Assembly: GCA_013388645.1 (NCBI GenBank)
Contig: JACAEV010000140.1
Coordinates: forward strand, 9,700 to 73,699
Length of the DNA: 64,000 bases
From: Syntrophaceae bacterium
Lineage (GTDB): Bacteria; Desulfobacterota; BSN033; UBA1163
Direction of reading: 5' to 3'
Positions 11,139 to 45,631 of the stretch are shown here, one piece after another. The notes below the pieces were generated by a model, which saw nothing but the letters and a program-made list of their open reading frames with translations, did no database searches and had not been told where the DNA came from. Position 1 is the first letter of the stretch; each line of letters opens with the position of its first letter. The position numbers and the translations under genes were made by a program.

Positions 11139-12425
11139 TCATTGAAGCACATCGGTGGAATCTTCTACGATTTCCCATATCGTAGGGGATGAAGGATCTG
11201 AGAGGTCTCGGATTCGTCCGTGTTCGTCACCCACCATGGGACATAATGGATATCCGGTATGGGTCTCAACGATGATCCCACTACTTCCATCCGAGAGGAC
11301 GACCCTCCTTCCCGCAGCCAGCACATTTAACAGCAGCAGGAAGGATGAGACATACTCCTTGTGAAGTTTTCCTGATAAGGCTTCTCTGATCAGAATCGTC
11401 GCTGCTTTAGCAACAGATAACGCTTGCCGATAGGGACGGACAGTGCGGAGAGCATCGTAGACATCGGCGACGGCGACAAGGAGGCTTGCAAAATGTAATG
11501 TGTGCTGGGGAAGACGTTGCTGAATCTTTGGATATCCGGATTGATTGGCCCCCATATGGTGTTGATAGGCGACTACCGGAAGGAGAGGGTTGGCGGATTC
11601 TACGCCGGGGATATCCAGAAGGAGTTGAGCACCGCAGAATGGGTGCCTCTCCATAAGAAGCCGCTCATGCGGTTCAAGAGGGCCATTGCGGTTTAAGATT
11701 TCTTTAGGGACTTCTTTCTTTCCAAGATCGTGGCAGAGGGCAGCCATGGAGATGGCATTGACCATTTCATCGGGGAGTCGGAGCGCCCGTGCCAGAGCGG
11801 ATGAAAGAACACAAACATTGAGGGCATGAGTAAAGGTGTAGTCGTCGAAGTTCTTCATTTCACGGATCGGCTCAAAAAGTTCTCTACCCACTGCCAATCG
11901 GGCAACAATTGCACATACGACCTCTCTGGCTCGAACGAGACCTTCGGGTTTTTTGGATTCAAGATCTGAGAGGACTCCTTGGGCTTCGGCGAGGAATCCC
12001 AGATACCCCGTGACCGCCCGAGTTAAAACAGAACTGGGCGTGACCTTTCTTTCTAATTTCAGGGAACCGGTGATGATTTTTAAACTCCGGTAAGGGGTTC
12101 GTTCCTTAGCCACCACCGTTTCGATCCATAAGGTGAGATCATCCTCTCTCGCATCCGGTTCAATTTGAATACTCTCAAATCCAAGTTGCTGGAGTGATTG
12201 AAAGAGAGCGCTGTAGGAAATGGGAATGTTTTCGATCCTCCGGTCTTCGACAATCGTATCATTTCCGAGGAAAGTAATCCTCACTGGCCGTCCCCAAGCA
12301 GCCAGTTTTTGAGAAGCTTGCTTAGCCGATTGGAGAATCTGTTTGGCCCCAGGAGGATAGATTCGGCGCATCCGAAAGAGAGCCCCAAGGTTGCAAAGAA
12401 AATAATCAAGGGCATCCTGCCCCAT
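11139..12425 (-). CDS. HD-GYP domain c-di-GMP phosphodiesterase with novel N-terminal domain
   Basis: HALNVCVLSSALA...LCHDLGK...HHMGANQSGYPKI are the HD and GYP motifs. The N-terminal ~100 aa are paralogous to the N-terminus of the upstream 609-aa protein. The start overlaps that gene by 20 nt. Confidence 0.8.
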   Translation of the reverse strand: MGQDALDYFLCNLGALFRMRRIYPPGAKQILQSAKQASQKLAAWGRPVRITFLGNDTIVEDRRIENIPISYSALFQSLQQLGFESIQIEPDAREDDLTLWIETVVAKERTPYRSLKIITGSLKLERKVTPSSVLTRAVTGYLGFLAEAQGVLSDLESKKPEGLVRAREVVCAIVARLAVGRELFEPIREMKNFDDYTFTHALNVCVLSSALARALRLPDEMVNAISMAALCHDLGKKEVPKEILNRNGPLEPHERLLMERHPFCGAQLLLDIPGVESANPLLPVVAYQHHMGANQSGYPKIQQRLPQHTLHFASLLVAVADVYDALRTVRPYRQALSVAKAATILIREALSGKLHKEYVSSFLLLLNVLAAGRRVVLSDGSSGIIVETHTGYPLCPMVGDEHGRIRDLSDPSSPTIWEIVEDSTDVLQ

Positions 12426-14235
12426 AGCTTTTCTCCCTTTTGGGTGGATACCAGTGGTTCTGGGAAATCAACCCCCCTCTTTCCCGCTCTCCCTTTTGGT
12501 TAGAGAGGTAGGTCTGGACTCTCTTCAGGGCTCTCAGGGCTTCACTACTCACCTTTGGATGAGGGTGATTTAAAAGAGCCTGAAGAGGACGAAGCACCTG
12601 AGGAAGTCCTTGCTGTCCGAGAACGATGGCAAGATTACGGGCAACGTACCAGGGACTGATGCGCGACTTTACCACAAAGGTTGGGGTTGCGGCTGAAGAG
12701 AAGCAGGAGAGGAGGTTGACGAGAAAATGGCGTTTGGAAATTTGTTCCTCTTCAGCCAGGGCCTTTAATGCCGTTTCGAGGAGACATTTTTCATGGTTCA
12801 CGGCAAAGGTGATGAGAGCATGCTGCTCCGGGAAAGAGGTTTTCGTAATGGCTGAAAGGCCTTTTTTAAATAAGTCTTTGACAAGGGAAGGAACGGAATC
12901 GAGCAGTTCTGGGAAGGTTCGATCCACCAGTCTGATAAAACCGAGAACACGCAGCGGACCCAACTGCTCCACACGTGCCTCGATACGGTTGAGGAGCCTT
13001 TTCTTAAAATCTTCTCCTTCCTCCAAGGCCAGGGCGAGAATCAGTTGATCCAAATATTCATCGGGGTCCTTCAACAAAAACGGTGTTTCCTCCTCCGGGC
13101 AAATCGTGGAAGAGGGATGAACCAAAAATTCAAGTGACTCGGAATACTCTGAATCCATAAAAGGGTTTTCTGATAGATTGATAATAAGATCCTCTACGGT
13201 CTTCCACACCTCCGCCGTAAACCCAGCATCCTTACCCGGAGATAACCTTGACTTGATCAATGTGAGGATTTCATCCGTTTTAGTGATTGGGGCAAAACGC
13301 CGGTATACCTCTACAAATCGATGAGTTCCTTGCTCGCCCAATGCAGCCAGCCCCGCGAGAAGATCGATAAATCGCTCTCCATCGATTTCCTTCAATAATG
13401 AGGCTTTCCCGAGTCCCAATCGCTTGGACTCCTGACCTTCGCGTCCTACGATTCGAACAAGATCTCTGACAGAGAGGAGCTTCCCCATTTGTGCAAGGTA
13501 ATTGAGGATGTCTTCCCGTTGACCTTCTGGAAGAAGGGATAGCGCATCCTCCAAACGCTCACCCAACATGAGCAAAAATTTCGTAAACCCCTCTGAATCG
13601 CCAAATCCCGATTCCGTCCACTCCTCCTTTGCGATTTCCCAGAATTCTTCAGAAGCAAGGGCAATGGCAAGCTGTTCAGTAGGGGCTTCGTGGCTCATGA
13701 GAGCAAGCCAAGCTTGGCGACGTCTTCGTTCCGGGTTTTCCTTAGAATCTTTCACTGCATCCGTAATCTCACTATGGATCTGATCCAGCTTCAGGGGCTC
13801 AATGTCGATAGTGAATACCTCAGAACGAAGTTGATGTCGGAGTTCTTGTCCTTCTAATTTGAGCGTGGAAATCACCCGAGCAAAACCCCAGACATCGTCA
13901 AGGGTCGCTTCTTTTGTCCAGAATATCTGAAGCACCTTTCTTGCATGCAACATCGAAGCAAGAGGGGTTGCCTTCCCAGCAATGAATTCTCCTGAAACGA
14001 CGAGCTCCTTGGAGGTGACCCCGATCGTAAGACTGCCTGTTGAATCGAACGGGACAGAATTTAGGACATTTTTAGCGACTTCGAGAAGGGTGGGGTGCTT
14101 GTTGGGATAGATGCGAACGCCGCGAATGAGGTGGACCAGATTTAAGGCAAATACCTCAACCTTTTTGGCGACTGTAGAAACTTCATTATTTTTCGATTCT
14201 ATCATGAATAACCTAAAAAAACCCAAACCAATCAA
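12406..14235 (-). CDS. 609-aa HEAT-repeat protein sharing its N-terminal domain with the HD-GYP protein
   Basis: C-terminal PWYVARNLAIVLGQQGLPQVLRPLQALLNHPHPKVSSEALRAL looks like HEAT/PBS-lyase repeats. N-terminal LIRGVRIYPNKHPTLLEVAK aligns with LFRMRRIYPPGAKQILQSAK of the HD-GYP protein. Confidence 0.45.
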   Translation of the reverse strand: MIGLGFFRLFMIESKNNEVSTVAKKVEVFALNLVHLIRGVRIYPNKHPTLLEVAKNVLNSVPFDSTGSLTIGVTSKELVVSGEFIAGKATPLASMLHARKVLQIFWTKEATLDDVWGFARVISTLKLEGQELRHQLRSEVFTIDIEPLKLDQIHSEITDAVKDSKENPERRRRQAWLALMSHEAPTEQLAIALASEEFWEIAKEEWTESGFGDSEGFTKFLLMLGERLEDALSLLPEGQREDILNYLAQMGKLLSVRDLVRIVGREGQESKRLGLGKASLLKEIDGERFIDLLAGLAALGEQGTHRFVEVYRRFAPITKTDEILTLIKSRLSPGKDAGFTAEVWKTVEDLIINLSENPFMDSEYSESLEFLVHPSSTICPEEETPFLLKDPDEYLDQLILALALEEGEDFKKRLLNRIEARVEQLGPLRVLGFIRLVDRTFPELLDSVPSLVKDLFKKGLSAITKTSFPEQHALITFAVNHEKCLLETALKALAEEEQISKRHFLVNLLSCFSSAATPTFVVKSRISPWYVARNLAIVLGQQGLPQVLRPLQALLNHPHPKVSSEALRALKRVQTYLSNQKGERERGGLISQNHWYPPKREKSYGAGCP

Positions 14236-31536: not shown

Positions 31537-32844
31537 TTAAGTTTCTTTTTTGGGGACACTTCTCCAACGTGACTTCCGGTATCTTATCTTCAATTCTTTG
31601 GGCCACCATGGTAATAAGTCAGAGGGCACTGTTTCTCGAAGAAGTCGCGGAACCCTTTCTCCCTTGGCCTGAGCTTCGATTCCAAATAGGAGGACAGCCT
31701 CTTTGAAATATTTTTTCATCCTCAGCCTCTTGGGAATGATCCCTTTTTGAATCGAATTTCTTATAATGGATTGGGCCATTAAGATCTGGCAAGCCATTTC
31801 CTTTGATCCTCTTGGAAAAGAGAACGGAGTGAGGATTTGATCAATGGCCCACCGGATGGTTTGCATCCGATAAAGATATTTTTCTCTTTTTCCAAGAAAA
31901 GGATGCTCGGGGGTGATCGATCGAAGGAAAGGAGTTAAAAGGAGGGCAAATAGAATGGATTCCGATACTTGACTTCCACCTCTAATCAATTGGTCCACCA
32001 GATCGAAAAGGGATAGAAAAAAATTTTTATTTTTTCCCTTGGAAAGGCTGCGATCCCCAAACGTCCTTTCGAGGTCGGGGAAAAGAGAAAATAGCAGACC
32101 TGTTTGAAGCATGAGTTGGAGGGAAGGCTTTGCCACACCTTCCTTCAGCTCCCGTAGAAACTCATCTCGAAGCCGGGAAGGGGAACATTTTCGTATCTCC
32201 TCCCGATTCCGGAGAATAGCCTGGTAAGTAGGTTCTTCAATAGAGAATCCGGTTCGGGCGGCATGGCGAATGACCCGAATCATTCGGACAGGATCTTGCT
32301 CAAACCTTTCATCCGGACTCCCGATGGTCCGAATGATTTGCCGTTCGAGGTCAACCATTCCACCGACATAGTCGATAATAGAGAAATCTGAGATATTATA
32401 AAAAAGGCCATTAATGGTGATGTCTCGGCGTTGGGCATCCTCTGCCGGGGTGCCAAAACTCTCCTTCCGTACGATCTCTCCTTCTTCTGTCTCGATTTCT
32501 TCAAATTCGGAGCGACTCCTAAAAGTGGAGACCTCTATCACCTTCCCGCCTTTAAAAAATACATGAACCAATCTGAACCTTCGGCCAACGATACGGCTGT
32601 TTTTAAAGAGAGCGTGAATTTCAAGGGGATGAGCATTGGTGACCACATCGAAATCTATTGGGATCTTTCCCAGCAGAAGATCCCGAACACTCCCTCCAAC
32701 GAGATAAGCTAAAAAACCATTCCGATGAAGGCGGTAAAGGACTTTTAAGGCTTCTTCATCAATATTTTTTCTTGAAATCGGATGGTTGGCTCTTGGAATG
32801 ATGAGAGGGGTCATTTGAAGATTTGAATCGCTCCGGGTGTACAA
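31537..32844 (-). CDS. pcnB: Poly(A) polymerase / tRNA nucleotidyltransferase family protein (PcnB-like)
   Basis: LVGGSVRDLLLGKIPIDFDVVTNAHP and RRFRLVHVFF are nucleotidyltransferase head-domain motifs. Confidence 0.7.
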   Translation of the reverse strand: MYTRSDSNLQMTPLIIPRANHPISRKNIDEEALKVLYRLHRNGFLAYLVGGSVRDLLLGKIPIDFDVVTNAHPLEIHALFKNSRIVGRRFRLVHVFFKGGKVIEVSTFRSRSEFEEIETEEGEIVRKESFGTPAEDAQRRDITINGLFYNISDFSIIDYVGGMVDLERQIIRTIGSPDERFEQDPVRMIRVIRHAARTGFSIEEPTYQAILRNREEIRKCSPSRLRDEFLRELKEGVAKPSLQLMLQTGLLFSLFPDLERTFGDRSLSKGKNKNFFLSLFDLVDQLIRGGSQVSESILFALLLTPFLRSITPEHPFLGKREKYLYRMQTIRWAIDQILTPFSFPRGSKEMACQILMAQSIIRNSIQKGIIPKRLRMKKYFKEAVLLFGIEAQAKGERVPRLLRETVPSDLLPWWPKELKIRYRKSRWRSVPKKET

Positions 32845-33188
32845 ACTTTAACGCATCGAGGATTTCCACGACAAAGGTCACAATGAAAAGCCTCTTCCCC
32901 CAAGATAGGCAGAGCATCAAAAGGACAGCATTCTGCCCTTTTTCTATCCCAAATAAATTTCTTTCTCTCTGGAGTCATCTTTAACCTTTCAGCATTAAGA
33001 CACTTCATCTTTTTGCACTGGCGGCATAGAACAGGCGTATGCAGGCTGGTGTCAAGATCATCTTTATCGATATGAATTGCTGATTTCTCTGGATTGATGA
33101 TTCCAAGATGAAAGAGAGAGCAAACCATTTCACAAAGATGGCAGCCACTGCATTTCTCTTTATTCACTTCGATTCTCATTATTTTCAA
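32811..33188 (-). CDS. 4Fe-4S dicluster ferredoxin-domain protein (partner of AOR)
   Basis: CSGCHLCEMVC...CRQC...CDLCRGNPRCVKVCTPGAI Cys motifs. Immediately downstream of the AOR gene on the same strand. Confidence 0.6.
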   Translation of the reverse strand: MKIMRIEVNKEKCSGCHLCEMVCSLFHLGIINPEKSAIHIDKDDLDTSLHTPVLCRQCKKMKCLNAERLKMTPERKKFIWDRKRAECCPFDALPILGEEAFHCDLCRGNPRCVKVCTPGAIQIFK

Positions 33189-33323
33189 GATGATTTATCT
33201 TCAGTCTAAAAGTTATGGGAAGGATGGAGGTTTAGGCAAAAGGTAAGGTCATTGGCCTGAAGAATCTTAAGACTTAACCTCTTGAACTGATGCCAAACAG
33301 GCCTCCTTACCCTTATCCTAACC

Positions 33324-35240
33324 TCACTCCTTCTTGATTAACCCCAATTTTTCCAATTTCTTTCTTTTAGGTATCCCATTTTCATCCCAGCCGTGAAGTC
33401 GATAATATTCATTTAGCATCCCATCAAATTCTTCATGAGAAATGACTTCTCCTTTTGCCGGTCCCTCTGGAATGGGTTCTTCAAAGTACCTTTTCGGTAA
33501 GGTGTCCTCTTTCCGGGTTATCCCATCTTTGACCAGCATCATTCTTTCTAAGGTATAAATCCTTTCTCCAATGATTTTTAACTCCTTTGGGGTAAAGGCC
33601 AAACCGGTCGAGAGAGCGATCAGCTTAGAGAATTCATTATATTGGGGAGCGTGAGGGCTTGAGAAAACAGTGAGGAAGTGGCAAAAACCCAAAGCATCGC
33701 AGAGAGCATTGAAGATCTCATGCCACCATATCATTCTTGCCTTACCCGAGTAAGCAGAGAATTGGTCGCTGACCCGCCCCCCATAGATCTTTTTCAGGAT
33801 TTTCTCGGGAAGGCCGAGGATATCCAAAGAGGGGCGACTTCTCATGTGGCAGGCTCCTCGCGTAGAGGTCGCCATCCCCAAGGCAAAACTTTTGGGAAGT
33901 CTCTCATCGGTCATTTCAATTGGAAAATTTTTAATGTCAAGAAGGTAATCTTTAGAAACTTCTCCGAAAATCCTCTTAGCAAAAGCGCCTTCTGCCAACC
34001 TATTTCCGAACCCTTTCCTCTGGGCAATCTGATGGATAAGTTTAAGAATCGTTTTCCCATCTCCCCAATTCAATGGGATTTCTGTCATTTTCTGATCGAT
34101 GATCCCCCGTTGAAAGAGTTCCATCACCCAGGCCAAATAGGAGCCGGTTGAAATGGTGTCAAGGCCATAGCGATTGCAGAGCTCGGTGGCAGAGAGGATA
34201 TTCTGAAGATTAAAATTTCCCAACTTCGATCCTAATGAACCAATGGAGGCATATTCAGGCCCCTCGCCCTTTGTCCCTTTATACTGTCCTTCTTCGATAG
34301 AGAATCGGTGCCGGCAATGAGCAGGGCAACCAAAACAGGAAAGCATTCCTGTGGAGAATGGTTCCAATGCCTCCGCTTCCAAGGCATACCCCTGTTCGCC
34401 AATCGTTGTCAATTGATTATTGCGGATGCTCAAAAAACCCATGGCATTTGCATATTGGAAGAGAAGAGGCGTTCCATATCTCCCAAGGGCTTGTACCCAT
34501 TTTGAATTCATCAGTTTCTTTAAGGTTCTTAAATAATATTTGAGATAATTTTTGGGGTCGGAAAGGGTGATGTCCAGGTTTCCCCTCACCGCCACTGCCT
34601 TCAAGTTCTTCGAACCCATGACCGCACCCATCCCTGTTCTTCCAGCAGAATTTTTCATGCCAGTGCGGATGGCAGAGAATCTGACCAAATTTTCTCCAGC
34701 AGAGCCGATACAGGCGACCTGGATTTTTTCATCTCCCAACTCTTGACGAATGATTCTTTGCGTGTCAACCGTATCAAGGCCCCAGAGTTTTTGTGCATCT
34801 CGAATTTCCACATTTCGATTTTTAATAAAGAGATAGATCGGTTTTCGACTTCTCCCTTTGATCAGCAGGTGACTTAAGCCTGCTTTGACCAATTCCGCTC
34901 CAAAATCTCCTCCCATATTCGAATCACCAAGATGGCCTGACTCTGGTGATTTGGCCGTGATGTTGATTCGGGATCCGAAGCCAAGGATCCCGGTGAGAAG
35001 ACCCGCTCCGAAGATCAGGGGGTTTTCTGGGGAAAGTGGATCAAGATCAGGTGAATAGGATTGAGAGAGGAGATACATATTGATTCCCCTTCCCCCCAAG
35101 AATTTATTTCTCAGATCCAGAGGGATAGGGAGGATCTCTACCGAATCTTTATTCAGATGAAGAAGGGCTATTTTTCTTCCAAGAACCATTCTACCGGGAT
35201 TATAACAGAATTGGCCTGAAAAGGCGTAATTTCTATCCAT
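33324..35240 (-). CDS. Tungsten-containing aldehyde:ferredoxin oxidoreductase (AOR family)
   Basis: N-terminal AOR_N domain (LGGRGINMYLL, GAGLLTG) and a ~600-aa length with conserved AOR C-terminal motifs. Confidence 0.85.
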   Translation of the reverse strand: MDRNYAFSGQFCYNPGRMVLGRKIALLHLNKDSVEILPIPLDLRNKFLGGRGINMYLLSQSYSPDLDPLSPENPLIFGAGLLTGILGFGSRINITAKSPESGHLGDSNMGGDFGAELVKAGLSHLLIKGRSRKPIYLFIKNRNVEIRDAQKLWGLDTVDTQRIIRQELGDEKIQVACIGSAGENLVRFSAIRTGMKNSAGRTGMGAVMGSKNLKAVAVRGNLDITLSDPKNYLKYYLRTLKKLMNSKWVQALGRYGTPLLFQYANAMGFLSIRNNQLTTIGEQGYALEAEALEPFSTGMLSCFGCPAHCRHRFSIEEGQYKGTKGEGPEYASIGSLGSKLGNFNLQNILSATELCNRYGLDTISTGSYLAWVMELFQRGIIDQKMTEIPLNWGDGKTILKLIHQIAQRKGFGNRLAEGAFAKRIFGEVSKDYLLDIKNFPIEMTDERLPKSFALGMATSTRGACHMRSRPSLDILGLPEKILKKIYGGRVSDQFSAYSGKARMIWWHEIFNALCDALGFCHFLTVFSSPHAPQYNEFSKLIALSTGLAFTPKELKIIGERIYTLERMMLVKDGITRKEDTLPKRYFEEPIPEGPAKGEVISHEEFDGMLNEYYRLHGWDENGIPKRKKLEKLGLIKKE

Positions 35241-35355
35241 TAACGTTTTATCTACTAATAGGCGTTCAGGTGGCTCTTGACAAATGAGTGAAATCGGAAA
35301 AGAATATTATTATAAATGTTGAAGTTTCAAAATTTTTAAACGAGCGGGGGTCAAA

Positions 35356-35550
35356 ATGAAAATACAGGAAGTAAGATCAAAGGCGAAGGCCTTGGGATTG
35401 AAAAGCACCTTTGGGCTATCGAAGGCAGAACTGATTCGAAGGGTTCAAAAGGCTGAAGGGAATTTTGATTGTTTCGGAACGGCCAAGGGCTATTGCGACC
35501 AATTTCAATGTTGTTTCAGAGAGGATTGTTTTAAATTTATCAAGAGTTAA
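35356..35550 (+). CDS. Small hypothetical protein with Rho-N/SAP-like helix pair and C-terminal Cys cluster (CFGTAKGYCDQFQCCFREDC)
   Basis: 64-aa ORF from the track with no confident family. Confidence 0.3.
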   Translation: MKIQEVRSKAKALGLKSTFGLSKAELIRRVQKAEGNFDCFGTAKGYCDQFQCCFREDCFKFIKS

Positions 35551-35621
35551 TTTTTTTGGCTGTGCCCGAAGGTTAATGCCTTTTTGCCTTGCAAAGTTAT
35601 TCAACGAAAGGAGGATTCGTT

Positions 35622-36200
35622 ATGGCAAAACAAATTCAATGGGAAACTTCACTCACGACGGCTAAGGGTAAGGCAAAGAAAGAGAGAAAACTGATTTTGA
35701 TGGACTTTTATAACAATCTCTGAATTGGGTGCCAACAGCTGGCAGCTGTTACTTATCCCGATTCGAATGTTTGTGCATCGGTAGAAAATAATTTCATCCC
35801 ACTTCAAATCGATTTCAACAAGAACAAAGCCCTGGTAAAACGATTTAGCGTTAAATGGACTCCCACTGTTGCCATTTTAGATTCGGAGGGCGAGGAGCAC
35901 CATCGTTTTGTCGGATATCTTCCTCCGGAGGATTTCATTGCACAGATCCTTCTCGGCAAGGGGAAGGTTGAATTCAATCTTGATCGCTTCGAACAATCCA
36001 TACAGTGTTTCCTGGAAGTTCTCGTTCGCTATTCCAAAACAGATGCCGCGCCTGAGGCACAATACTATCTCGGTGTTGCCAAGTATAAAGCAACCCATGA
36101 TCCCAAACAATTGAAATTGGGATTGGAGGTGCTGCAAAGGGATTATCCGAATAGCGAGTGGACTAAGAAGGCCCAGGTATACGGACTGATTCCTGGGTAG
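35622..36200 (+). CDS. Thioredoxin-fold selenoprotein with UxxC redox motif (in-frame TGA 35721..35723 read as selenocysteine)
   Basis: RBS AAAGGAGG precedes ATG 35622. The ORF reaches TGA at codon 34, at the exact position of the first Cys of a thioredoxin-like CxxC motif (DFYNNL-U-IGCQQ). The same frame then runs 159 codons without any Met to TAG 36198..36200. A stem-loop AACAGC/UGGCA/GCUGUU begins 10 nt after the TGA. Confidence 0.6.
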
Positions 36201-38769: not shown

Positions 38770-39284
38770 TCAATCGTCTATTTTCCTACTTTCATTCCGG
38801 AGTCTTAAAATAATCTCTGAAGCGATCTTGGCAGCAATTCCACAAACTTCTGGACATCCCTTTCGACTATGGCCACCCATACTGTGAAAGTTCTCTCTTT
38901 CCTCCGGGATATGCATCCGATAAACTTTTCCAAATCGGATTCGATGAATTTCTTGACACAAGGTATGACCTATTTTCTCCTTGAATTTTGCGAACATTTC
39001 CATGGCGGGCTCCATCGCCTTCTGATATTGCTCCTTGTCCTCAAGTTTTTCGCGCCCAACGACTGTACCGATTGCCATCAATGAACCCAATAAAGCACCA
39101 CAGGTCTCGCCCTGGCGAGCAACGCCACCTGCGAGGGTGCTTGCGGATTTAAAAACCTCTTTATTCCCAATTTGTAATTTCTCTTGCAAAGCTGCAAGAA
39201 CGGATTGGCTTCACCCAAAATAATCCATATCATATTGAAGGGCCAATTTAAAAATTTCTTCGGCTAGATGGTTTTCTTTTTCCA
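38770..39284 (-). CDS. C_GCAxxG_C_C-family putative redox protein, selenocysteine-containing variant (in-frame TGA at 39210..39212, minus strand)
   Basis: Minus-strand ATG at 39284 with RBS GAGGTGA gives MEKENHLAEEIFKLALQYDMDYFG-TGA-SQSVLAAL... The TGA replaces the conserved first Cys, and ETCGALLG plus the C-terminal GCPEVCG complete the family signature. A hairpin UUCUUGCA/GCUU/UGCAAGAA starts 10 nt after the TGA. Frame continuity across a T-homopolymer near 39178..39182 follows the ORF track, which implies one more T than I count in the printed text. Confidence 0.5.
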
Positions 39285-39437
39285 TTCATCACCTCGGCTG
39301 GGGCGGAGTATAAAACCCTTGACTTCATTAATATTTGTTCCCAACTTCGTACTATTCGTAATTAAAAAAAAAGATATTGTCAAGAAGCCAAATTAAAATC
39401 AAAAAAAGCGCTTGACTTTTTTAGAGGATGAATTAAA

Positions 39438-39457: not shown

Positions 39458-39500
39458 ATTTTAAAAAGCATTTAAATTGATAAGGACAAAAATTAGGAAG

Positions 39501-40304
39501 ATGTATTCCTTTAAAGCGATCAAAAAAGATTCATTATCTCAGCGGATAGAAAAAGATATCAAAAACGCAATCGCCTCTCGAATTTATAAACCTCTTGAAA
39601 AATTGCCTTCCGAAAGGGATCTTATGGGTCAATTCAATGTCAGTCGTACCACCATCCGGGAGGCTTTAATGAGTTTACAGAGCAGCGGTTTGATTTTTGT
39701 AAAAAGAGGAATGAATGCAGGCGCCTATGTAGCTGAGATCAATCCGGATCCAATCACAGAGAATTTTCAAAACCTGATTAAATTTGGAAAGATTAACTTT
39801 GTTCATCTTACAGAGGCACGGTTATATATCGAACCCGAAGCTGCCAGAATTGCAGCCATTTGCAGATCAGAGAAAGATCTTGCGACACTTAACGAGCTCC
39901 TGGCAAAAGCCGAGGCCAGTAATCAGACTTCAGTCAAAGAGGCGCGCTTGATCAATGTCCGTTTCCATGTGGAAGTTGCAAAGGTTACTCAAAATCCGAT
40001 TATCATTTTTATCTCAGAGTCCGTCACACAAGTCTTTTCGGCAGGTCTGATTGAGCGGACGAAACTCAGTAAAGCGGATGTGTTGAAAAATATTGATGCC
40101 CATCGATATATCTTGGATTCGATCATTCGAAAGGATGAAAAAGAAGCCTATGAAAGAGCCAAGAGCCATATTTTAGGGGTTTACCATACCTATCGCCGGA
40201 TTATCCCTAACGTTCCCCGAAGCGATATCAGGGGACTCGAAAACCGGTTGGGGGATTTTAAAAAGGACGGAAAAGGCAAATCCAGGGTGACTTTCAGGGG
40301 ATGA
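39501..40304 (+). CDS. GntR/FadR-family transcriptional regulator
   Basis: LPSERDLMGQFNVSRTTIREALMSLQSSGLIFVKRGMNAGAYVA winged HTH and an FCD-like C-terminal domain. ATG 39501 is in frame with the TTG-initiated track ORF. Confidence 0.75.
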   Translation: MYSFKAIKKDSLSQRIEKDIKNAIASRIYKPLEKLPSERDLMGQFNVSRTTIREALMSLQSSGLIFVKRGMNAGAYVAEINPDPITENFQNLIKFGKINFVHLTEARLYIEPEAARIAAICRSEKDLATLNELLAKAEASNQTSVKEARLINVRFHVEVAKVTQNPIIIFISESVTQVFSAGLIERTKLSKADVLKNIDAHRYILDSIIRKDEKEAYERAKSHILGVYHTYRRIIPNVPRSDIRGLENRLGDFKKDGKGKSRVTFRG

Positions 40305-40494
40305 GGATCATTTGCCAGAGCCGATTGGATATCGAGATGGATATAATTTAATCCTGAGAAAATCGGGAGGGCGAAAGGATCGGAATGGAAAGGCAGTCTC
40401 CATTCAGAACGGGAAGGTGGGAGGGAGAGAAAGAAGAATGTGGAAAAAGAAAAAAGTTGGAATTAATTTTTTAACCAAGAAAGGAGGAGAGACC

Positions 40495-41481
40495 ATGATG
40501 AAAAGAGTTTCATTGCTTGAGTTGGCGGGGGTTGTGATTCTCATTACGACTTTTGTTCTATTTGGGGGGACAGAGATTTCATGGGCTCAAAAGTCCGTTA
40601 GAATTTCTATCGCCACAGGTGGAACAGGCGGGGTCTGGTATCCCTATGGGGGAGCCATGGCCAATGTGATTTCGAAATACCTTTCTGAGGTTGAAGCAAC
40701 GGCCGAAGTCACCGCCGCTTCCGTGGACAATGCGAGGTTATTGGGAGCTGGTAAGGTTGATGTTGCTTTCATATTCGGAGACGTTGGTTACGATGCGTTT
40801 TTGGGGAAGGGGGTCTTTAAAGAAAAAATACCCACCATGCGTTGCATCGCTTCCCTATACCCCTCCGTGACTCATATCGTAACCCGGGAGGGGACGGGAA
40901 TCGAAAAAGTTGCGGACCTAAAGGGGAAAAGAATTTCGACAGGGGCTCCTGGAAGCGCAACGGAGGTCATCGCCAATAGAATCCTGGAGGCTTATGGAGT
41001 GGATCCTGACCGAGACATAAAAAAGGATCGACTGAGTGTGGCGGAGTCTGTGGGGGCATTAAAAGATAGAAAAGTGGACGCTTTTTTCTGGACCGGAGGG
41101 ATTCCAACCTCTGCGATCATGGACATCTGTGCCACTCCTGGCATCAAGGCAAAGCTATTAGAGAACGCTGAGGCGCTTCCGAAACTGATATCCAAATTCG
41201 GTCCGATTTATTACAAGAGCATATGCCCTAAGAATACCTATCCGGGAATTGACTATGATGTGGCCACCGTGACAGCAGGCAATTTTCTATCCTGTCTCGA
41301 AAAGGTGGATGAGAAGCTGGTCTATAGTATTATCAAGACACTTTTTGATCACCGGGACGAATTAATTAAAACCCATAAAGTCGCTCTGCAGCTCAAATTA
41401 GAGGATGCAGTGGAAGGATCTCCTTATCCATACCACCCGGGGGCCATCAAGTACTATAAAGAAAAAGGGGTTTGGAAATGA
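40495..41481 (+). CDS. TAXI-family TRAP transporter solute receptor
   Basis: Signal peptide MMKRVSLLELAGVVILITTFVLFGG and ISIATGGTGGVWYPYGGAMANVIS, typical of TAXI-type periplasmic binding proteins. RBS AAGGAGGAG precedes ATG 40495. Confidence 0.7.
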   Translation: MMKRVSLLELAGVVILITTFVLFGGTEISWAQKSVRISIATGGTGGVWYPYGGAMANVISKYLSEVEATAEVTAASVDNARLLGAGKVDVAFIFGDVGYDAFLGKGVFKEKIPTMRCIASLYPSVTHIVTREGTGIEKVADLKGKRISTGAPGSATEVIANRILEAYGVDPDRDIKKDRLSVAESVGALKDRKVDAFFWTGGIPTSAIMDICATPGIKAKLLENAEALPKLISKFGPIYYKSICPKNTYPGIDYDVATVTAGNFLSCLEKVDEKLVYSIIKTLFDHRDELIKTHKVALQLKLEDAVEGSPYPYHPGAIKYYKEKGVWK

Positions 41482-41497
41482 GGGGGAGGGGGGAAGG

Positions 41498-42859
41498 ATG
41501 GAAGAGATATTGGCAAAGATCGTTCATCACCTCACGAAGACCCAATTCGATGATCTTCCTGCCACTGTTATTGATCATACAAAGAAATTTATTGTTGATT
41601 CATTTGGTGTGGCAATTGCTGGAGGATCCGCTCCTGGATGCAAAGAGGTAGCGGACCTTGTTCGATCATGGGGAGGGAAACCAGAGGCCACCCTCTTGGG
41701 ATATGAGGGGAAAGTTCCTTCTCCTTCAGCCGCTTTTGCCAATAGTGTGATGATGCATGCGTTGGATTTCGATGATACCTTGGATGAATCAGCGCTACAT
41801 GCCCATGTGACTGTTTTGCCATCTGCGTTAGCTGTGGCAGAGGCCATGGGTGGAGTCTCGGGGAAAGATCTCATCACTGCGGTGACTTTAGGCGTAGACT
41901 TAGTTTGTCGGTTGGGATTAGCTACACGGAGGCCATTATCGTGGGTCCGTACAGCGACCTGTGGATCCTTCGGAGCGGCTGCTGCCTCAGGAAAAATATT
42001 AAGATTGGATAAAGAAGAAATGTGGAACGCTCTTGGGGTGGTTTATAGTCAAGCTTCTGGGAACGCACAATGCCTTATTGATGGAGGACTCGTCAAACGG
42101 ATGCAACCTGGTTTTTCTGCAAAAGCTGGGGTCTTTTCTGTTTTTTTAGCAAAGAAGGGAATTACAGGAGCCAAAGATCTCTTTGAAGGGCCATATGGAT
42201 TTTTTAATCTCTATGAGGGAGGCGATTATGACCGAGAGAGCATATTGACAGGATTTGGAAAACAATTTGAAGGGGTGAAATTGAGCATTAAGCCTTATCC
42301 CTCCTGTCGCATGACCCATGCCTCCATCGATGCGGCCATTGCGGTAAGAGAAAATTATAAGATCAACCCATCCGAGATTGAAGAGGTGGTCGTCCGCGTT
42401 TCCCCAATGGTGTTTAATATGGTTGGATCTCCATTTGTCATTCGTGAAAATCCCCAGGTGGATGCTCAATTCAGCATCCCCTATAATGTGGCAGTGGGAA
42501 TGATCAAAGGAGAGGTCTTCTTAAAAGATTTCGACGAGCGCTACATCAGGGATCCTCAAGTTCTCGAATTATCCAGGAAAATAAGAGTGGAGATTGATCC
42601 AGGTTTACCGGAAAGAGATATGATGTCTGCGGATCTCCAGGTGAAGACCAAGAATAACATTTTCTATAAGAAAGTCGATAAGGTAAAAGGAAATCCTTTA
42701 AATCCTATGGATATGAATGAATGTGTCAAAAAATTTATGAAATGTATTGAGTATAGTGAAAATCCCAATATGGAGAAAAAGGCCAAGGAGATCTTGGACG
42801 CTTTAATCGATCTCGACCAGTTGAGGGATATTAGTGTTCTGATGCGGTTATTTGTATAA
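41498..42859 (+). CDS. MmgE/PrpD-family protein (2-methylcitrate dehydratase / cis-aconitate decarboxylase superfamily)
   Basis: The N-terminal region (ILAKIVHHLTKTQFDDLPATVIDHTKKFIVDSFGVAIAG) and ~450-aa length are consistent with the PrpD fold. Confidence 0.7.
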   Translation: MEEILAKIVHHLTKTQFDDLPATVIDHTKKFIVDSFGVAIAGGSAPGCKEVADLVRSWGGKPEATLLGYEGKVPSPSAAFANSVMMHALDFDDTLDESALHAHVTVLPSALAVAEAMGGVSGKDLITAVTLGVDLVCRLGLATRRPLSWVRTATCGSFGAAAASGKILRLDKEEMWNALGVVYSQASGNAQCLIDGGLVKRMQPGFSAKAGVFSVFLAKKGITGAKDLFEGPYGFFNLYEGGDYDRESILTGFGKQFEGVKLSIKPYPSCRMTHASIDAAIAVRENYKINPSEIEEVVVRVSPMVFNMVGSPFVIRENPQVDAQFSIPYNVAVGMIKGEVFLKDFDERYIRDPQVLELSRKIRVEIDPGLPERDMMSADLQVKTKNNIFYKKVDKVKGNPLNPMDMNECVKKFMKCIEYSENPNMEKKAKEILDALIDLDQLRDISVLMRLFV

Positions 42860-42968
42860 AGATCTCAAATTAAATGCAGAAAGAATAGAGGTGGAGAACT
42901 TTTGGGCCTCCGTTGAAGAGGCCCTCTTCATTTTTTAAGGAAAATTTATTAAAGGGAAGGGATCGAAT

Positions 42969-44414
42969 GTGACTCGTAAGGCATCTCCTGAAGTAACGAA
43001 ATTGGTGGATGAATTGGCAACGATTGTAACTAAGAAATATGTGTCAGCTCATATTTTTGAGAGGATAAAAAGTTCAATCGATACCTTTCCTTATGAAGCA
43101 GAGAAAGAGAATCTGCCCTATGCGATTGTGATGCCAAAATCGAAGAACGAGGTTAGTGAGATTTTGAAGTATGCCAATCGAAGAGAAATCCCTGTATTTA
43201 TCCGAGGGTCAGGGACTTCTTTTACCGGTGCTTCACGGTACCATATTCCAGGCATCGTCATCAACACACATCGAATGAATGACATAGAAGTCTTTGAAGA
43301 CTTTGGTTTTTTTGAATGCGGACCAGGATGTATTTGTGAATCAGTAGCGAAGGAGATCGAAACGCGAGGTTACTTCCTTCCATTTGCCCCTGGCAGTCGA
43401 TTAATTGCAAGCATGGGTGGATTAATTGCCAATAATACCAGCGCTCATATCGTCGATGCCAGTGTTGGAAAGCCTGGGGATTATGTGCTTGGCCTCGAAG
43501 TGGTGCTTCCAAATGGGGAGATCATAGAGACGGGAACGAAAGGGTTACGAAGACCAGCGGGCACGGACTTGACCAAGTGGTTTGTAGGAGGGGATGGACT
43601 TTTAGGTGTGGTGACCAGGATCCGGATGAGACTTGCCCCCGCATTTGAAAGGGCCTATGGGATTGCGATTTACCAAGATCTCAAATCCCTCGCAAAGGGT
43701 GTTCAGAGAATATATAGGGAGAGGCGGCCCCTTCCTTTATTTATGGAATTTATGGAGAAGGAGACCGCTAAAATTGGATATAAGATTAAGGGGCTTGAAA
43801 TTCCAAAAGGATCGGTCATTCTGTTTGTGAGCACAGGAAATTCAAAAGAGGAGGCCTCTCAGAAGGCCGAACAGATATTGAGTTCGCTACGTGCTGAGAA
43901 TCCGATGGAGGCCCAACTCATTAAAGATATCGAGTTATGGGAAAAACTTTGGTCATCTCGTGAAGTGATTGGGTCTTACCTCATGCAAGAAAGCGGAAAT
44001 CAATGGTCTTCTGCCGAAGTGGTCTCCAATCTCATGGAACTTGAAGCGTGTATGGAGGATGCGTCCCATTTCAATCAAGATTTACCGGTGCTCAGCCAAT
44101 TGACTCTCTATCTGTTTGGACACATTGGAGGTTTGACGATGCACCCTGGTGTGATCATCCCTAAAGAATGGGATAATGAGAAAAAGAAGAGGGCGGTTGA
44201 TGAGAAATTTCAGAGAGAGGCTGAATTAAATCTAAAGTATCATACCTGTGGCGGGGAGTGGGGCCAATTTGCGAAACGGGCGCCCTTTTTTATCATGCGG
44301 TATGGAGAAGAGAGTTATGAATTGATGAAGAAAATTAAGAAAACTTTTGATCCCAATAATATACTCAATCCGGGAGTTTTGGAGGGGGACTTCAACAATA
44401 AGGAGAATGGATGA
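42969..44414 (+). CDS. FAD-linked oxidase (GlcD / D-lactate dehydrogenase-like FAD-binding subunit)
   Basis: FAD_binding_4 motifs VFIRGSGTSFTGAS and GGDGLLGVVTRIRMRL. GTG start. Confidence 0.75.
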   Translation: MTRKASPEVTKLVDELATIVTKKYVSAHIFERIKSSIDTFPYEAEKENLPYAIVMPKSKNEVSEILKYANRREIPVFIRGSGTSFTGASRYHIPGIVINTHRMNDIEVFEDFGFFECGPGCICESVAKEIETRGYFLPFAPGSRLIASMGGLIANNTSAHIVDASVGKPGDYVLGLEVVLPNGEIIETGTKGLRRPAGTDLTKWFVGGDGLLGVVTRIRMRLAPAFERAYGIAIYQDLKSLAKGVQRIYRERRPLPLFMEFMEKETAKIGYKIKGLEIPKGSVILFVSTGNSKEEASQKAEQILSSLRAENPMEAQLIKDIELWEKLWSSREVIGSYLMQESGNQWSSAEVVSNLMELEACMEDASHFNQDLPVLSQLTLYLFGHIGGLTMHPGVIIPKEWDNEKKKRAVDEKFQREAELNLKYHTCGGEWGQFAKRAPFFIMRYGEESYELMKKIKKTFDPNNILNPGVLEGDFNNKENG

Positions 44415-45631
44415 ATCAAAGGAAGGTGGCCAGAGATCTTCACAGCATAGATGAAGAAGAATATATTGAGGATTTAAAGGGAATTATCCTTGATGCCGCA
44501 AAGAGGTGCAGGAACTGCAATTATTGTTTTACGATTTGTCCTTTGTTCCATTCGACACGCGGGTTTATGAGTCAAACTCCTTCTGGCATTATGCAATCGA
44601 TCAACTATGCCTTAAAATGGGACGTCTTTAAGGGAGAAGATCAAGAAATTTTACGAGATCTTTTGTATCTTTGTACGACATGTAACGGATGTGTTCTACG
44701 ATGCAAATCCAAAGCAACGGGGCTCCCCGTTTTAGATGCAATCGAGGCGGGAAGAAAATTATTGAGGGAGATGATGATTGGCCCTCTCCCACAACAGAGA
44801 AAACCTCTAAAAGATATCTATTTATATGGCAATCCCTATGGGGAAAAGCCTGAGAGAAGAGTCGATTGGACGAAGGGATTGAAGGTGAAAATAATCCCTC
44901 CCGAGAGAGCAGAGGTTTTATTTTATGTGGGATGTACCACTGCCTACGAACCTAGCCTGCATCTGATAGGAAAAAGTCTGGTCAGACTGCTTCAATCCCT
45001 TCATGTCGATTTTGGAATTTTAAACGAAGAGGTTTGCTGTGGGGAACCTGCCAGAAGGATGGGGGATGAGGGTCTATTTCAAGAAATGATGAACCGAAAC
45101 CTCGATCAATTTAAGAGTTATGGCATAAAAACGATCGTATCCATCTCACCCCATTGTTTTAATACTTTCTTGAATGAATATCCAACCATCCAGGAGGAGA
45201 TAAAAATTCAACATTACACAGAGTTCTTGGCAGAGGCATTCAAAGGGAAGAAGCCATTGTTCAAGAAAGAAATCTCCTCTGTCATTACCTATCATGACCC
45301 CTGTTACCTTGGTAAACATAATCAGATTTTCAACGCCCCGAGGGAACTTTTGCAGATGATCCCTGGGGTGAAATTGGTTGAGATGAAGATGACAAGGGAA
45401 GAGAGTCTCTGTTGTGGGGGCGGAGGGGGAAGAATGTTTGCCGAGGTGGAGGAGGAACGAAGGTTATCCGATATGCGAATCACTCAAGCTCTGGAGGCCG
45501 GGGCAAATATCATTGCCACCGCGTGTCCTTGGTGTTACAAAATGCTCCAAAATTCGATTCAGGATTCTAATCTCGAGGATAAGATAAGGGCTAAAGATAT
45601 CTCAATCATTTTAAGTGAAGCCTTGAATTGA
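44411..45631 (+). CDS. Fe-S oxidoreductase with two 4Fe-4S motifs and two CCG domains (GlcF/LutA/HdrD-like)
   Basis: CRNCNYCFTICP and CTTCNGCVLRC ferredoxin motifs. CCGEPA and CCGGGGG cysteine-rich CCG domains. Overlaps the FAD oxidase gene by 4 nt. Confidence 0.75.
   Translation: MNQRKVARDLHSIDEEEYIEDLKGIILDAAKRCRNCNYCFTICPLFHSTRGFMSQTPSGIMQSINYALKWDVFKGEDQEILRDLLYLCTTCNGCVLRCKSKATGLPVLDAIEAGRKLLREMMIGPLPQQRKPLKDIYLYGNPYGEKPERRVDWTKGLKVKIIPPERAEVLFYVGCTTAYEPSLHLIGKSLVRLLQSLHVDFGILNEEVCCGEPARRMGDEGLFQEMMNRNLDQFKSYGIKTIVSISPHCFNTFLNEYPTIQEEIKIQHYTEFLAEAFKGKKPLFKKEISSVITYHDPCYLGKHNQIFNAPRELLQMIPGVKLVEMKMTREESLCCGGGGGRMFAEVEEERRLSDMRITQALEAGANIIATACPWCYKMLQNSIQDSNLEDKIRAKDISIILSEALN

Follow-up and report, generated by a model that had tools for sequence, protein, structure and literature searches.

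The window analysed here is the whole 64,000-nucleotide stretch of contig JACAEV010000140.1 from a Syntrophaceae bacterium (GenBank assembly GCA_013388645.1). At 35622-36200 on its (+) strand lies a candidate selenoprotein gene, in which the ATG at 35622 is followed, after 33 sense codons, by an in-frame TGA at 35721-35723; past the TGA the frame stays open for 158 further sense codons, none of them Met, up to a TAG at 36198-36200. An earlier sequence-only reading of this DNA, made without database searches, had proposed that the TGA encodes selenocysteine (Sec, U) and that the gene had been missed. The ribosome-binding site, the start codon, the TGA and the open frame all lie where that reading had placed them, and the program-made list of open reading frames (ORFs) indeed has no entry of at least 50 aa in this frame. 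The following features were assigned to the gene, with the evidence for each in brackets.

35606..35614, (+) strand: ribosome-binding site GAAAGGAGG, 7 nt 5' of ATG 35622 (read directly in the sequence).
35622..36200, (+) strand: complete predicted selenoprotein coding sequence of 192 residues, with Sec at residue 34, and its TAG (translation, BLASTP, synonymous share of codon differences).
35628..35978, (+) strand: thioredoxin-fold domain, about residues 3-119, including the W79-T80-P81 loop at 35856-35864 (Pfam, AlphaFold, Foldseek).
35721..35723, (+) strand: UGA codon assigned to selenocysteine U34, the first position of a UxxC redox motif (TGA in 160/160 loci, TGC in Cys forms).
35730..35732, (+) strand: TGC codon of Cys37, the presumed resolving cysteine of UxxC (C37 column invariant in the family alignment).
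35734..35750, (+) strand: core hairpin AACAGC-UGGCA-GCUGUU of the selenocysteine insertion sequence (SECIS) element, with a stem of 6-7 bp and G-G in the apical loop (folding, synonymous constraint, pairing).
35722..35764, (+) strand: possible, weakly indicated lower SECIS helix, in which 35722-35729 would pair with 35757-35764 around the core hairpin (minimum-free-energy structure).
35979..36188, (+) strand: C-terminal TPR-like helical domain, about residues 120-189 (model, family profile).

Read through the TGA, the frame gives the product MAKQIQWETSLTTAKGKAKKERKLILMDFYNNL-U-IGCQQLAAVTYPD..., and the peptide around the TGA is ...ILMDFYNNL-U-IGC-QQLAAVTYPD. The start at ATG 35622 is consistent with the conserved N-terminus of the homologues, M-A/G-K-x-I-x-W-E. 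Related loci were collected from species-representative genomes (80) and from metagenome contigs (80), and the codon aligned to the window TGA was found to be TGA in 160/160. As judged by record titles, the carriers include Thermodesulfobacteriota and Syntrophaceae metagenome-assembled genomes (MAGs), with 69-89% identity to the window protein, many Vulcanimicrobiota/Eremiobacterota, with 32-46% identity, and one or a few each of Planctomycetota, Chloroflexota, Clostridia, Actinomycetota and Candidatus Acidoferrum. When the gene was compared with 99 close relatives, synonymous changes made up 69% of the codon differences before the TGA and 70% of those after it. Both pieces are therefore translated and are under the same purifying selection. 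TGA is also the stop codon of 17 of the 55 long ORFs in the window, and hence the organism uses the standard genetic code, with TGA as a normal stop.

Sec/Cys pairs occur within the family. In the close clade, Cys forms are represented by P0007, P0014, P0019-21 and P0024, and TGC was confirmed in the DNA of three such loci (L082, L083 and L084); in distant clades they include P0121, P0123, P0134, P0144 and Geomonas proteins, besides many more distant forms with CxxC. When the family profile was compared with solved thioredoxin-like structures, U34 was aligned to the first Cys of their CxxC motif. The TGA thus sits at the first Cys of a thioredoxin CxxC, as had been proposed from the letters, with Cys homologues carrying TGC there. 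None of the homologues ends at the TGA, both sides of which are conserved, and the Cys of the Cys forms aligns to the U.

The core hairpin is 17 nt long and begins 10 nt after the UGA, which bears out the hairpin of SECIS geometry predicted at this place. In the published model of the bacterial SECIS element (bSECIS), the apical loop is 3-9 nt, the upper stem is 4-16 bp, a G occurs in the first two loop positions, the UGA-to-loop distance is 16-37 nt, and the free energy is -7.5 kcal/mol or lower. The window hairpin fits these constraints with a loop UGGCA (or GGC), a G in position 2, the pattern N-G-G-N-N and the 6-7 bp stem, and its UGA-to-loop spacing of 16-17 nt is at the lower limit of the model. 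The 45-nt element 35721-35765 has a folding energy of -18.3 kcal/mol (z = -4.05), and 0/200 shuffles fold as well. The hairpin also resembles the 17-nt minimal element of E. coli fdhF, located 11 nt after the UGA.

Constraint on the hairpin at the RNA level is evident from synonymous sites. In a set of 91 distinct sequences from the close clade, synonymous entropy averages 0.08 bit over the hairpin codons +4 to +9 (CAA CAG CTG GCA GCT GTT), compared with 1.05 bit elsewhere, and these codons make up the six-codon window of lowest entropy in the gene. Across the relatives, 99.7% of cells preserve pairing at the six stem positions, and a member from Clostridia has compensatory changes at 4 of the 6 pairs that leave the helix and its register intact. 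The Cys form L083 has CAG CAA TTG, which retains the peptide QQL but destroys the hairpin by synonymous changes, as would be expected after release from the constraint; in the Cys form L082 the hairpin is still present.

With U replaced by C, the protein matched the Pfam families Thioredoxin_2 (PF13098; 52.3 bits against a cut-off of 27), Thioredoxin (PF00085; 36.4 bits against 23.5) and Thioredoxin_7 (PF13899; 36.3 bits against 27), the matches spanning residues 6-108. The structure was taken from the AlphaFold model of P0007, a naturally occurring Cys form with 81% identity to the window protein; the model has a pLDDT of 92.6 and consists of a thioredoxin fold followed by a helix bundle. Helix 35-44 follows the motif at residues 34-37, and strand 82-86 follows the invariant W79-T80-P81, whose proline is presumably in the cis conformation. 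The bundle comprises helices 123-136, 142-158, 161-174 and 179-189, and Pfam TPR_6 reached 19.8 bits on this part, below its cut-off of 26.3. Thus, the thioredoxin fold with UxxC that had been suggested for the protein is borne out by Pfam scores above the gathering cut-offs and by the AlphaFold model and its Foldseek matches, and the TPR-like C-terminal half by the helix bundle of the model and by a profile match to YbgF (PDB 2xev, E = 1e-12). As the thioredoxin domain starts at about residue 3, with no N-terminal hydrophobic stretch visible, the protein is predicted to be cytoplasmic; no signal peptide or membrane segment is visible in its sequence.

A 2026 review of prokaryotic selenoproteins includes a 'Thiol:disulfide interchange protein' family, tabulated with PF13098, UxxC and WP_011366075.1. 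The family was reported by Zhang et al. (2006, Genome Biol 7:R94; PMC1794560) in Geobacter metallireducens, G. uraniumreducens and Syntrophus aciditrophicus, and the three Sec sequences in supplementary file 4 of that paper were used as references. In BLASTP, the window protein is 42%, 45% and 41% identical to them (E = 4e-58, 5e-64 and 8e-50, respectively), the alignments covering 186-187 of its 192 residues with one gap, and U34 aligns with the U of FFNPG-U-IGC in all three. The published proteins are similar in length (186-190 versus 192 aa), have U at the same aligned position in U-I-G-C, and likewise combine a thioredoxin fold with a helical C-terminal domain and lack a signal peptide. 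Blocks common to both are W-x-T, LLDF, VTYP, KWTP, EH-R-x-G, APEA-Y and YP-SEW. Because of the end-to-end identity, the alignment of U on U and the sharing of all conserved blocks, the product of 35622-36200 is placed in this family, and we consider the locus, with a probability of about 0.9, to be a genuine Sec-encoding gene belonging to it. Reference 12 of the review, which is credited with the family, is presumably Kryukov & Gladyshev 2004.

Within the family, the window clade is distinguished by NNL-U-IGC-QQLAAV in place of the NPG-U-IGC-KQMDAV of Geobacter/Syntrophus, and by a SECIS hairpin that lies 7 nt closer to the UGA and differs in sequence from that of Geobacteraceae/Vulcanimicrobiota. 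Most members of the window clade, unlike those of the Geobacter/Syntrophus type, also have a small four-Cys ORF just upstream of the gene. The same miscall around the TGA as in the window, in the form of 33-aa and 150-aa ORFs, was seen in a Geobacteraceae MAG.

Several observations weigh against the assignment. Taken alone, the 17-nt hairpin folds with only -6.4 kcal/mol, and 14/200 shuffles fold as well. Covariation in the core hairpin comes from no more than a handful of sequences, a single one from the close clade and three from the distant clade, and the putative lower helix, which includes the UGA, is paired in only 78% of cells in the relatives, without clear covariation. Rfam was searched with the entire window at its gathering thresholds and with 35600-35900 at a relaxed limit of E = 10, and no SECIS family was hit; the sole match was to a plant microRNA and is spurious. 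The SECIS check proposed in the sequence-only reading thus came out in favour of the element as regards fit to the bSECIS constraints and strong synonymous-site constraint, and yielded no match as regards Rfam. The 2026 review grades the family 'predicted with high confidence', not 'experimentally verified'. ARAGORN detected no tRNA-Sec, and tBLASTn with the E. coli proteins SelA, SelB and SelD no selA, selB or selD, either in the 64-kb window or in the related loci and their flanks, as is expected for 64 kb. Finally, clustering of the neighbours in 80 genomes, which took genes of at least 80 aa and so did not cover the small upstream ORF of 64 aa, revealed no gene conserved beside the selenoprotein gene outside the close clade and gave no functional clue, the neighbours being housekeeping genes such as those for a PcnB-family nucleotidyltransferase, methylmalonyl-CoA epimerase and mutase, and hemL.

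The TGA could alternatively mark a pseudogene, that is, a thioredoxin-like gene inactivated here by a nonsense mutation of TGC or TGT to TGA. From TGC this takes a single-base change, the locus is handled by gene callers as if it were broken or held no gene, and the Sec machinery is not seen in the window. However, the TGA is shared by all 160 loci in several phyla, the frame contains no further stops or frameshifts, the differences are about 70% synonymous in both halves, and the RNA hairpin is kept at synonymous sites; that the relatives are assembly copies of each other is excluded by their identities of 69-89%. The pseudogene explanation is effectively refuted by these conservation data and retains almost no probability. 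In another explanation the TGA would be a true stop that ends a 33-residue peptide, with the downstream part untranslated and the hairpin acting as a terminator or attenuator. A pattern scan does flag 35730-35744 as terminator-like, and an alternative stem, UGCCA/UGGCA, is 94% paired in the relatives, but this stem shows no compensatory change, does no better than its shuffles and is not followed by a T-run of terminator quality. Moreover, protein-level conservation extends over the 158 codons past the TGA, where the share of synonymous differences is high, and these codons complete a thioredoxin fold that could not be formed from 33 residues, which makes a true stop extremely improbable.

It is also conceivable, although very unlikely, that the TGA is translated without Sec, either through reassignment to Trp or Gly (genetic code 4 or 25) or through near-cognate suppression. 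Many full-length database entries have W at the position (P0001-P0006, P0008-P0013 and others), as would be expected if TGA were read as Trp. These residues look artefactual, the alternative code having been chosen by gene callers on short contigs, since the DNA fetched for close relatives reads TGA. In the window TGA ends ordinary ORFs, as described above, true homologues have Cys and not Trp at the site, the SECIS-type hairpin is under selection, and orthologues were classed as Sec proteins in published work. Insertion of Sec at the UGA is therefore the preferred reading.

The hairpin is not the same throughout the family. In the distant clade and in a Geobacteraceae MAG (L023-L080, L167), a different hairpin, GGAUAC-CGUGAC-GUAUCC, starts 7 nt further downstream. 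It shows synonymous-site constraint of its own and is 99.7% paired, and three sequences carry an A-U to G-C change. This suggests that the SECIS element has been replaced within one family. Where the distant members have Gly immediately before the UGA, its codon is always GGT (47/47), possibly an effect of the upstream codon context.

A second gene of a similar kind lies about 3 kb from 35622-36200.

38770-39285, (-) strand: second missed selenoprotein gene, 171 residues, with ATG 39285-39283, TGA 39213-39211 and stop 38772-38770 (NCBIfam TIGR01909).

Read through its TGA, the second gene matches TIGR01909, 'C-GCAxxG-C-C family (seleno)protein', at 66.9 bits against a cut-off of 47.4, with U in place of the first Cys of that family's motif (DYFG-U-SQSVL). 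A hairpin with a 6-bp stem, CUUGCA-GCUU-UGCAAG, is found 12 nt after the TGA. The ORF list holds only its 139-aa piece starting with TTG. As two independent selenoprotein-type TGA genes are present within 4 kb, the organism very likely decodes Sec. The 'Thiol:disulfide interchange protein' family is also found in the known Sec users Geobacter and Syntrophus (Zhang et al. 2006). A weak SelD-like tBLASTn match in the related locus L074 is to an AIR-synthase-family protein that falls below every NCBIfam cut-off, and it was not used as evidence. Elsewhere in the window, a 609-aa ORF at 12406-14235 on the (-) strand, which matches no NCBIfam family, ends ...YGAGCP-TGA, with the frame open for 26 more codons; this TGA is probably an ordinary stop, since the next gene overlaps the end of the ORF.

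By analogy with the established bacterial mechanism, SelB carrying Sec-tRNA(Sec) would bind the hairpin at 35734-35750, and the UGA at 35721-35723 would be read as selenocysteine and not as a stop. If thioredoxin chemistry is followed, Sec34 would occupy the position of the attacking N-terminal cysteine of CxxC and Cys37 would be the resolving residue. The protein would then most likely be a thiol-disulfide oxidoreductase acting via a selenenylsulfide intermediate. Its TPR-like domain probably serves as the binding site for a client or partner, the nearest architectural precedent being YbbN/CnoX. Selenoproteins with a thioredoxin fold and UxxC are the commonest kind in bacteria.

Among solved thioredoxin domains of known function, the closest is the C-terminal (gamma) domain of DsbD (PDB 2fwe, 1uc7, 1vrs), which was matched by the family profile with E = 2.3e-12 and has the redox motif in the same place. 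In Foldseek it superimposes on the P0007 model with a target TM-score of 0.72-0.78, an rmsd of 1.9-2.5 and about 25% identity, and the best NCBIfam matches of the window protein are likewise to the C-terminal thioredoxin domain of DsbD and TsoB. DsbD, however, is located in the membrane, has periplasmic domains and comprises about 570 residues, whereas the window protein has 192 residues, no membrane or export signal and a TPR-like domain that is absent from DsbD. Identity with DsbD was rejected, as only profile positions 458-569 of 574 match (52.4 bits against a cut-off of 330) and there is no membrane part. TsoB (59.8 bits against 805), VPGUxxT (20.9 against 350), Trx7/PDZ (11.8 against 300) and PDO_seleno_TRX (12.7 against 185) were rejected as well, and no NCBIfam model scored above its cut-off for the window protein. 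The family name derives from the likeness to the DsbD thioredoxin domain; it is historical and misleading, because the protein should work in the cytoplasm.

The cytoplasmic 'chaperedoxin' YbbN/CnoX (PDB 3qou, 3qdn) has the same two-part layout of a thioredoxin domain and TPR-type helices and was the top full-length Foldseek match of the P0007 model (E = 5.8e-8). The superposition is poor (14-15% identity, TM-score 0.41-0.43 by query and 0.30-0.31 by target, rmsd about 12 Å, and 11.8 Å for the top match), and YbbN/CnoX is larger, at about 285 residues, with a larger TPR domain. The two are alike in architecture; any membership in the YbbN/CnoX family would be tentative. CnoX combines redox protection of its clients with holdase activity, and E. 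coli YbbN is not known to have a full CxxC motif. By analogy, CnoX suggests how a thioredoxin-TPR fusion may work. The C-terminal 80 residues of the family match the TPR domains of YbgF/CpoB and BamD (PDB 2xev, 6g5s, 5waq). The profile match to YbgF includes the block A-P-x-A-x-Y-x-L-G, and those to CpoB and BamD are weaker. On the window protein, NCBIfam tol_pal_ybgF reached 26.9 bits, and the YbgF/CpoB/BamD scores are all below the family cut-offs. These proteins are periplasmic or located in the outer membrane, in contrast to the window protein, which has no export signal.

The locus at 35622-36200 is therefore an annotation gap and not a discovery: it was missed by gene callers, and the family is already in the literature. 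Of the earlier claim of a missed selenoprotein, the selenoprotein and the oversight by gene callers hold, but the literature had not overlooked it. The consequence of the TGA for gene calling can be seen in L081, an independent assembly of this DNA, where the gene caller passed over the selenoprotein gene and called the following ORF.

35877-36137 in the window (2699-2959 in L081), (-) strand: antisense ORF of 86 aa (gene call in L081).

This call is almost certainly spurious and caused by the TGA. In public collections the family is present mostly as fragments of 120-157 residues named 'TPR repeat protein', 'TolA-binding protein', 'BamD' or 'hypothetical protein', the second and third of these names being due to the C-terminal similarity to the TPR domains of YbgF/CpoB and BamD. 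When 260 short database relatives were inspected, 204 proved to be truncated pieces, and no source name shown says selenoprotein. Full-length entries with Trp at the Sec position are P0001-P0006, P0008-P0013, P0015-P0018, P0022, P0023 and P0126. That no NCBIfam model is passed may be the reason why none of the records inspected names the family a selenoprotein.

The scientific gain is small, given that the family, its UxxC motif and the position of Sec have been in the literature since 2004-2006. The family is, however, widespread in Vulcanimicrobiota/Eremiobacterota, and a literature search gave no paper holding both 'selenoprotein' and 'Eremiobacterota'. This spread is modestly new, as are the failure of every NCBIfam model to reach its cut-off, the mostly truncated entries, the two SECIS hairpins and the 64-aa upstream ORF. 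In practice, the annotation problem is a fairly large one. If a profile were built for the family with U allowed at position 34, hundreds of records would be corrected, and the selenoprotein counts for Thermodesulfobacteriota and Vulcanimicrobiota genomes would rise. Of specialist interest are the two non-equivalent SECIS hairpins in one family, the Cys form with a decayed hairpin and the small four-Cys neighbour.

Two features flank the selenoprotein gene on its upstream side.

35356..35550, (+) strand: conserved 64-aa ORF, just upstream of the selenoprotein gene (kept in close relatives).
33324-35240, (-) strand: aldehyde:ferredoxin oxidoreductase (AFOR) gene, with AFOR_N and AFOR_C domains (domain matches).

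The product of the 64-aa ORF has a weakly Rho_N/SAP-like N-terminus, with Pfam Rho_N and SAP both below their cut-offs, and a C-terminal motif C-x8-C-x4-CC-x4-C. Of the 93 close relatives with enough upstream DNA, 67 have the ORF on the strand of the selenoprotein gene, at a distance of 32-347 nt (median about 75 nt) before it; the ORF was not found in distant relatives or in the fetched Cys-form loci. A promoter-like site at 35277-35305 is a consensus match only. The 64-aa ORF and the selenoprotein gene may share a transcript or be functionally linked. A more far-reaching reading, which we regard as rather unlikely, would make the two genes of the close clade a redox module, in which the selenoprotein would be a CnoX-like, selenium-dependent reductase/holdase dedicated to the small protein; in the same reading, the family would be a signature selenoprotein of Vulcanimicrobiota/Eremiobacterota whose SECIS hairpin was replaced at least once.

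The AFOR gene bears out the tungsten-enzyme neighbour recognised in the sequence-only reading, though not its value as functional evidence. AFOR is found divergently upstream of the selenoprotein locus in only 11 related contigs (L014, L015, L016, L086, L088, L109, L122, L124, L129, L132 and L136), and the adjacency is therefore regarded as clade-specific synteny and not as a general functional link. In the window AFOR is followed by a small 4Fe-4S ferredoxin-like ORF of 125 aa, the pair occupying 32811-35240 on the (-) strand. On the other side of the selenoprotein gene, a cluster at 39477-45631 on the (+) strand encodes a GntR/FCD regulator, an NMT1_3 substrate-binding protein, an MmgE/PrpD-family protein, an FAD-linked oxidase and a CCG/4Fe-4S protein, and looks like an operon for the utilisation of organic acids.

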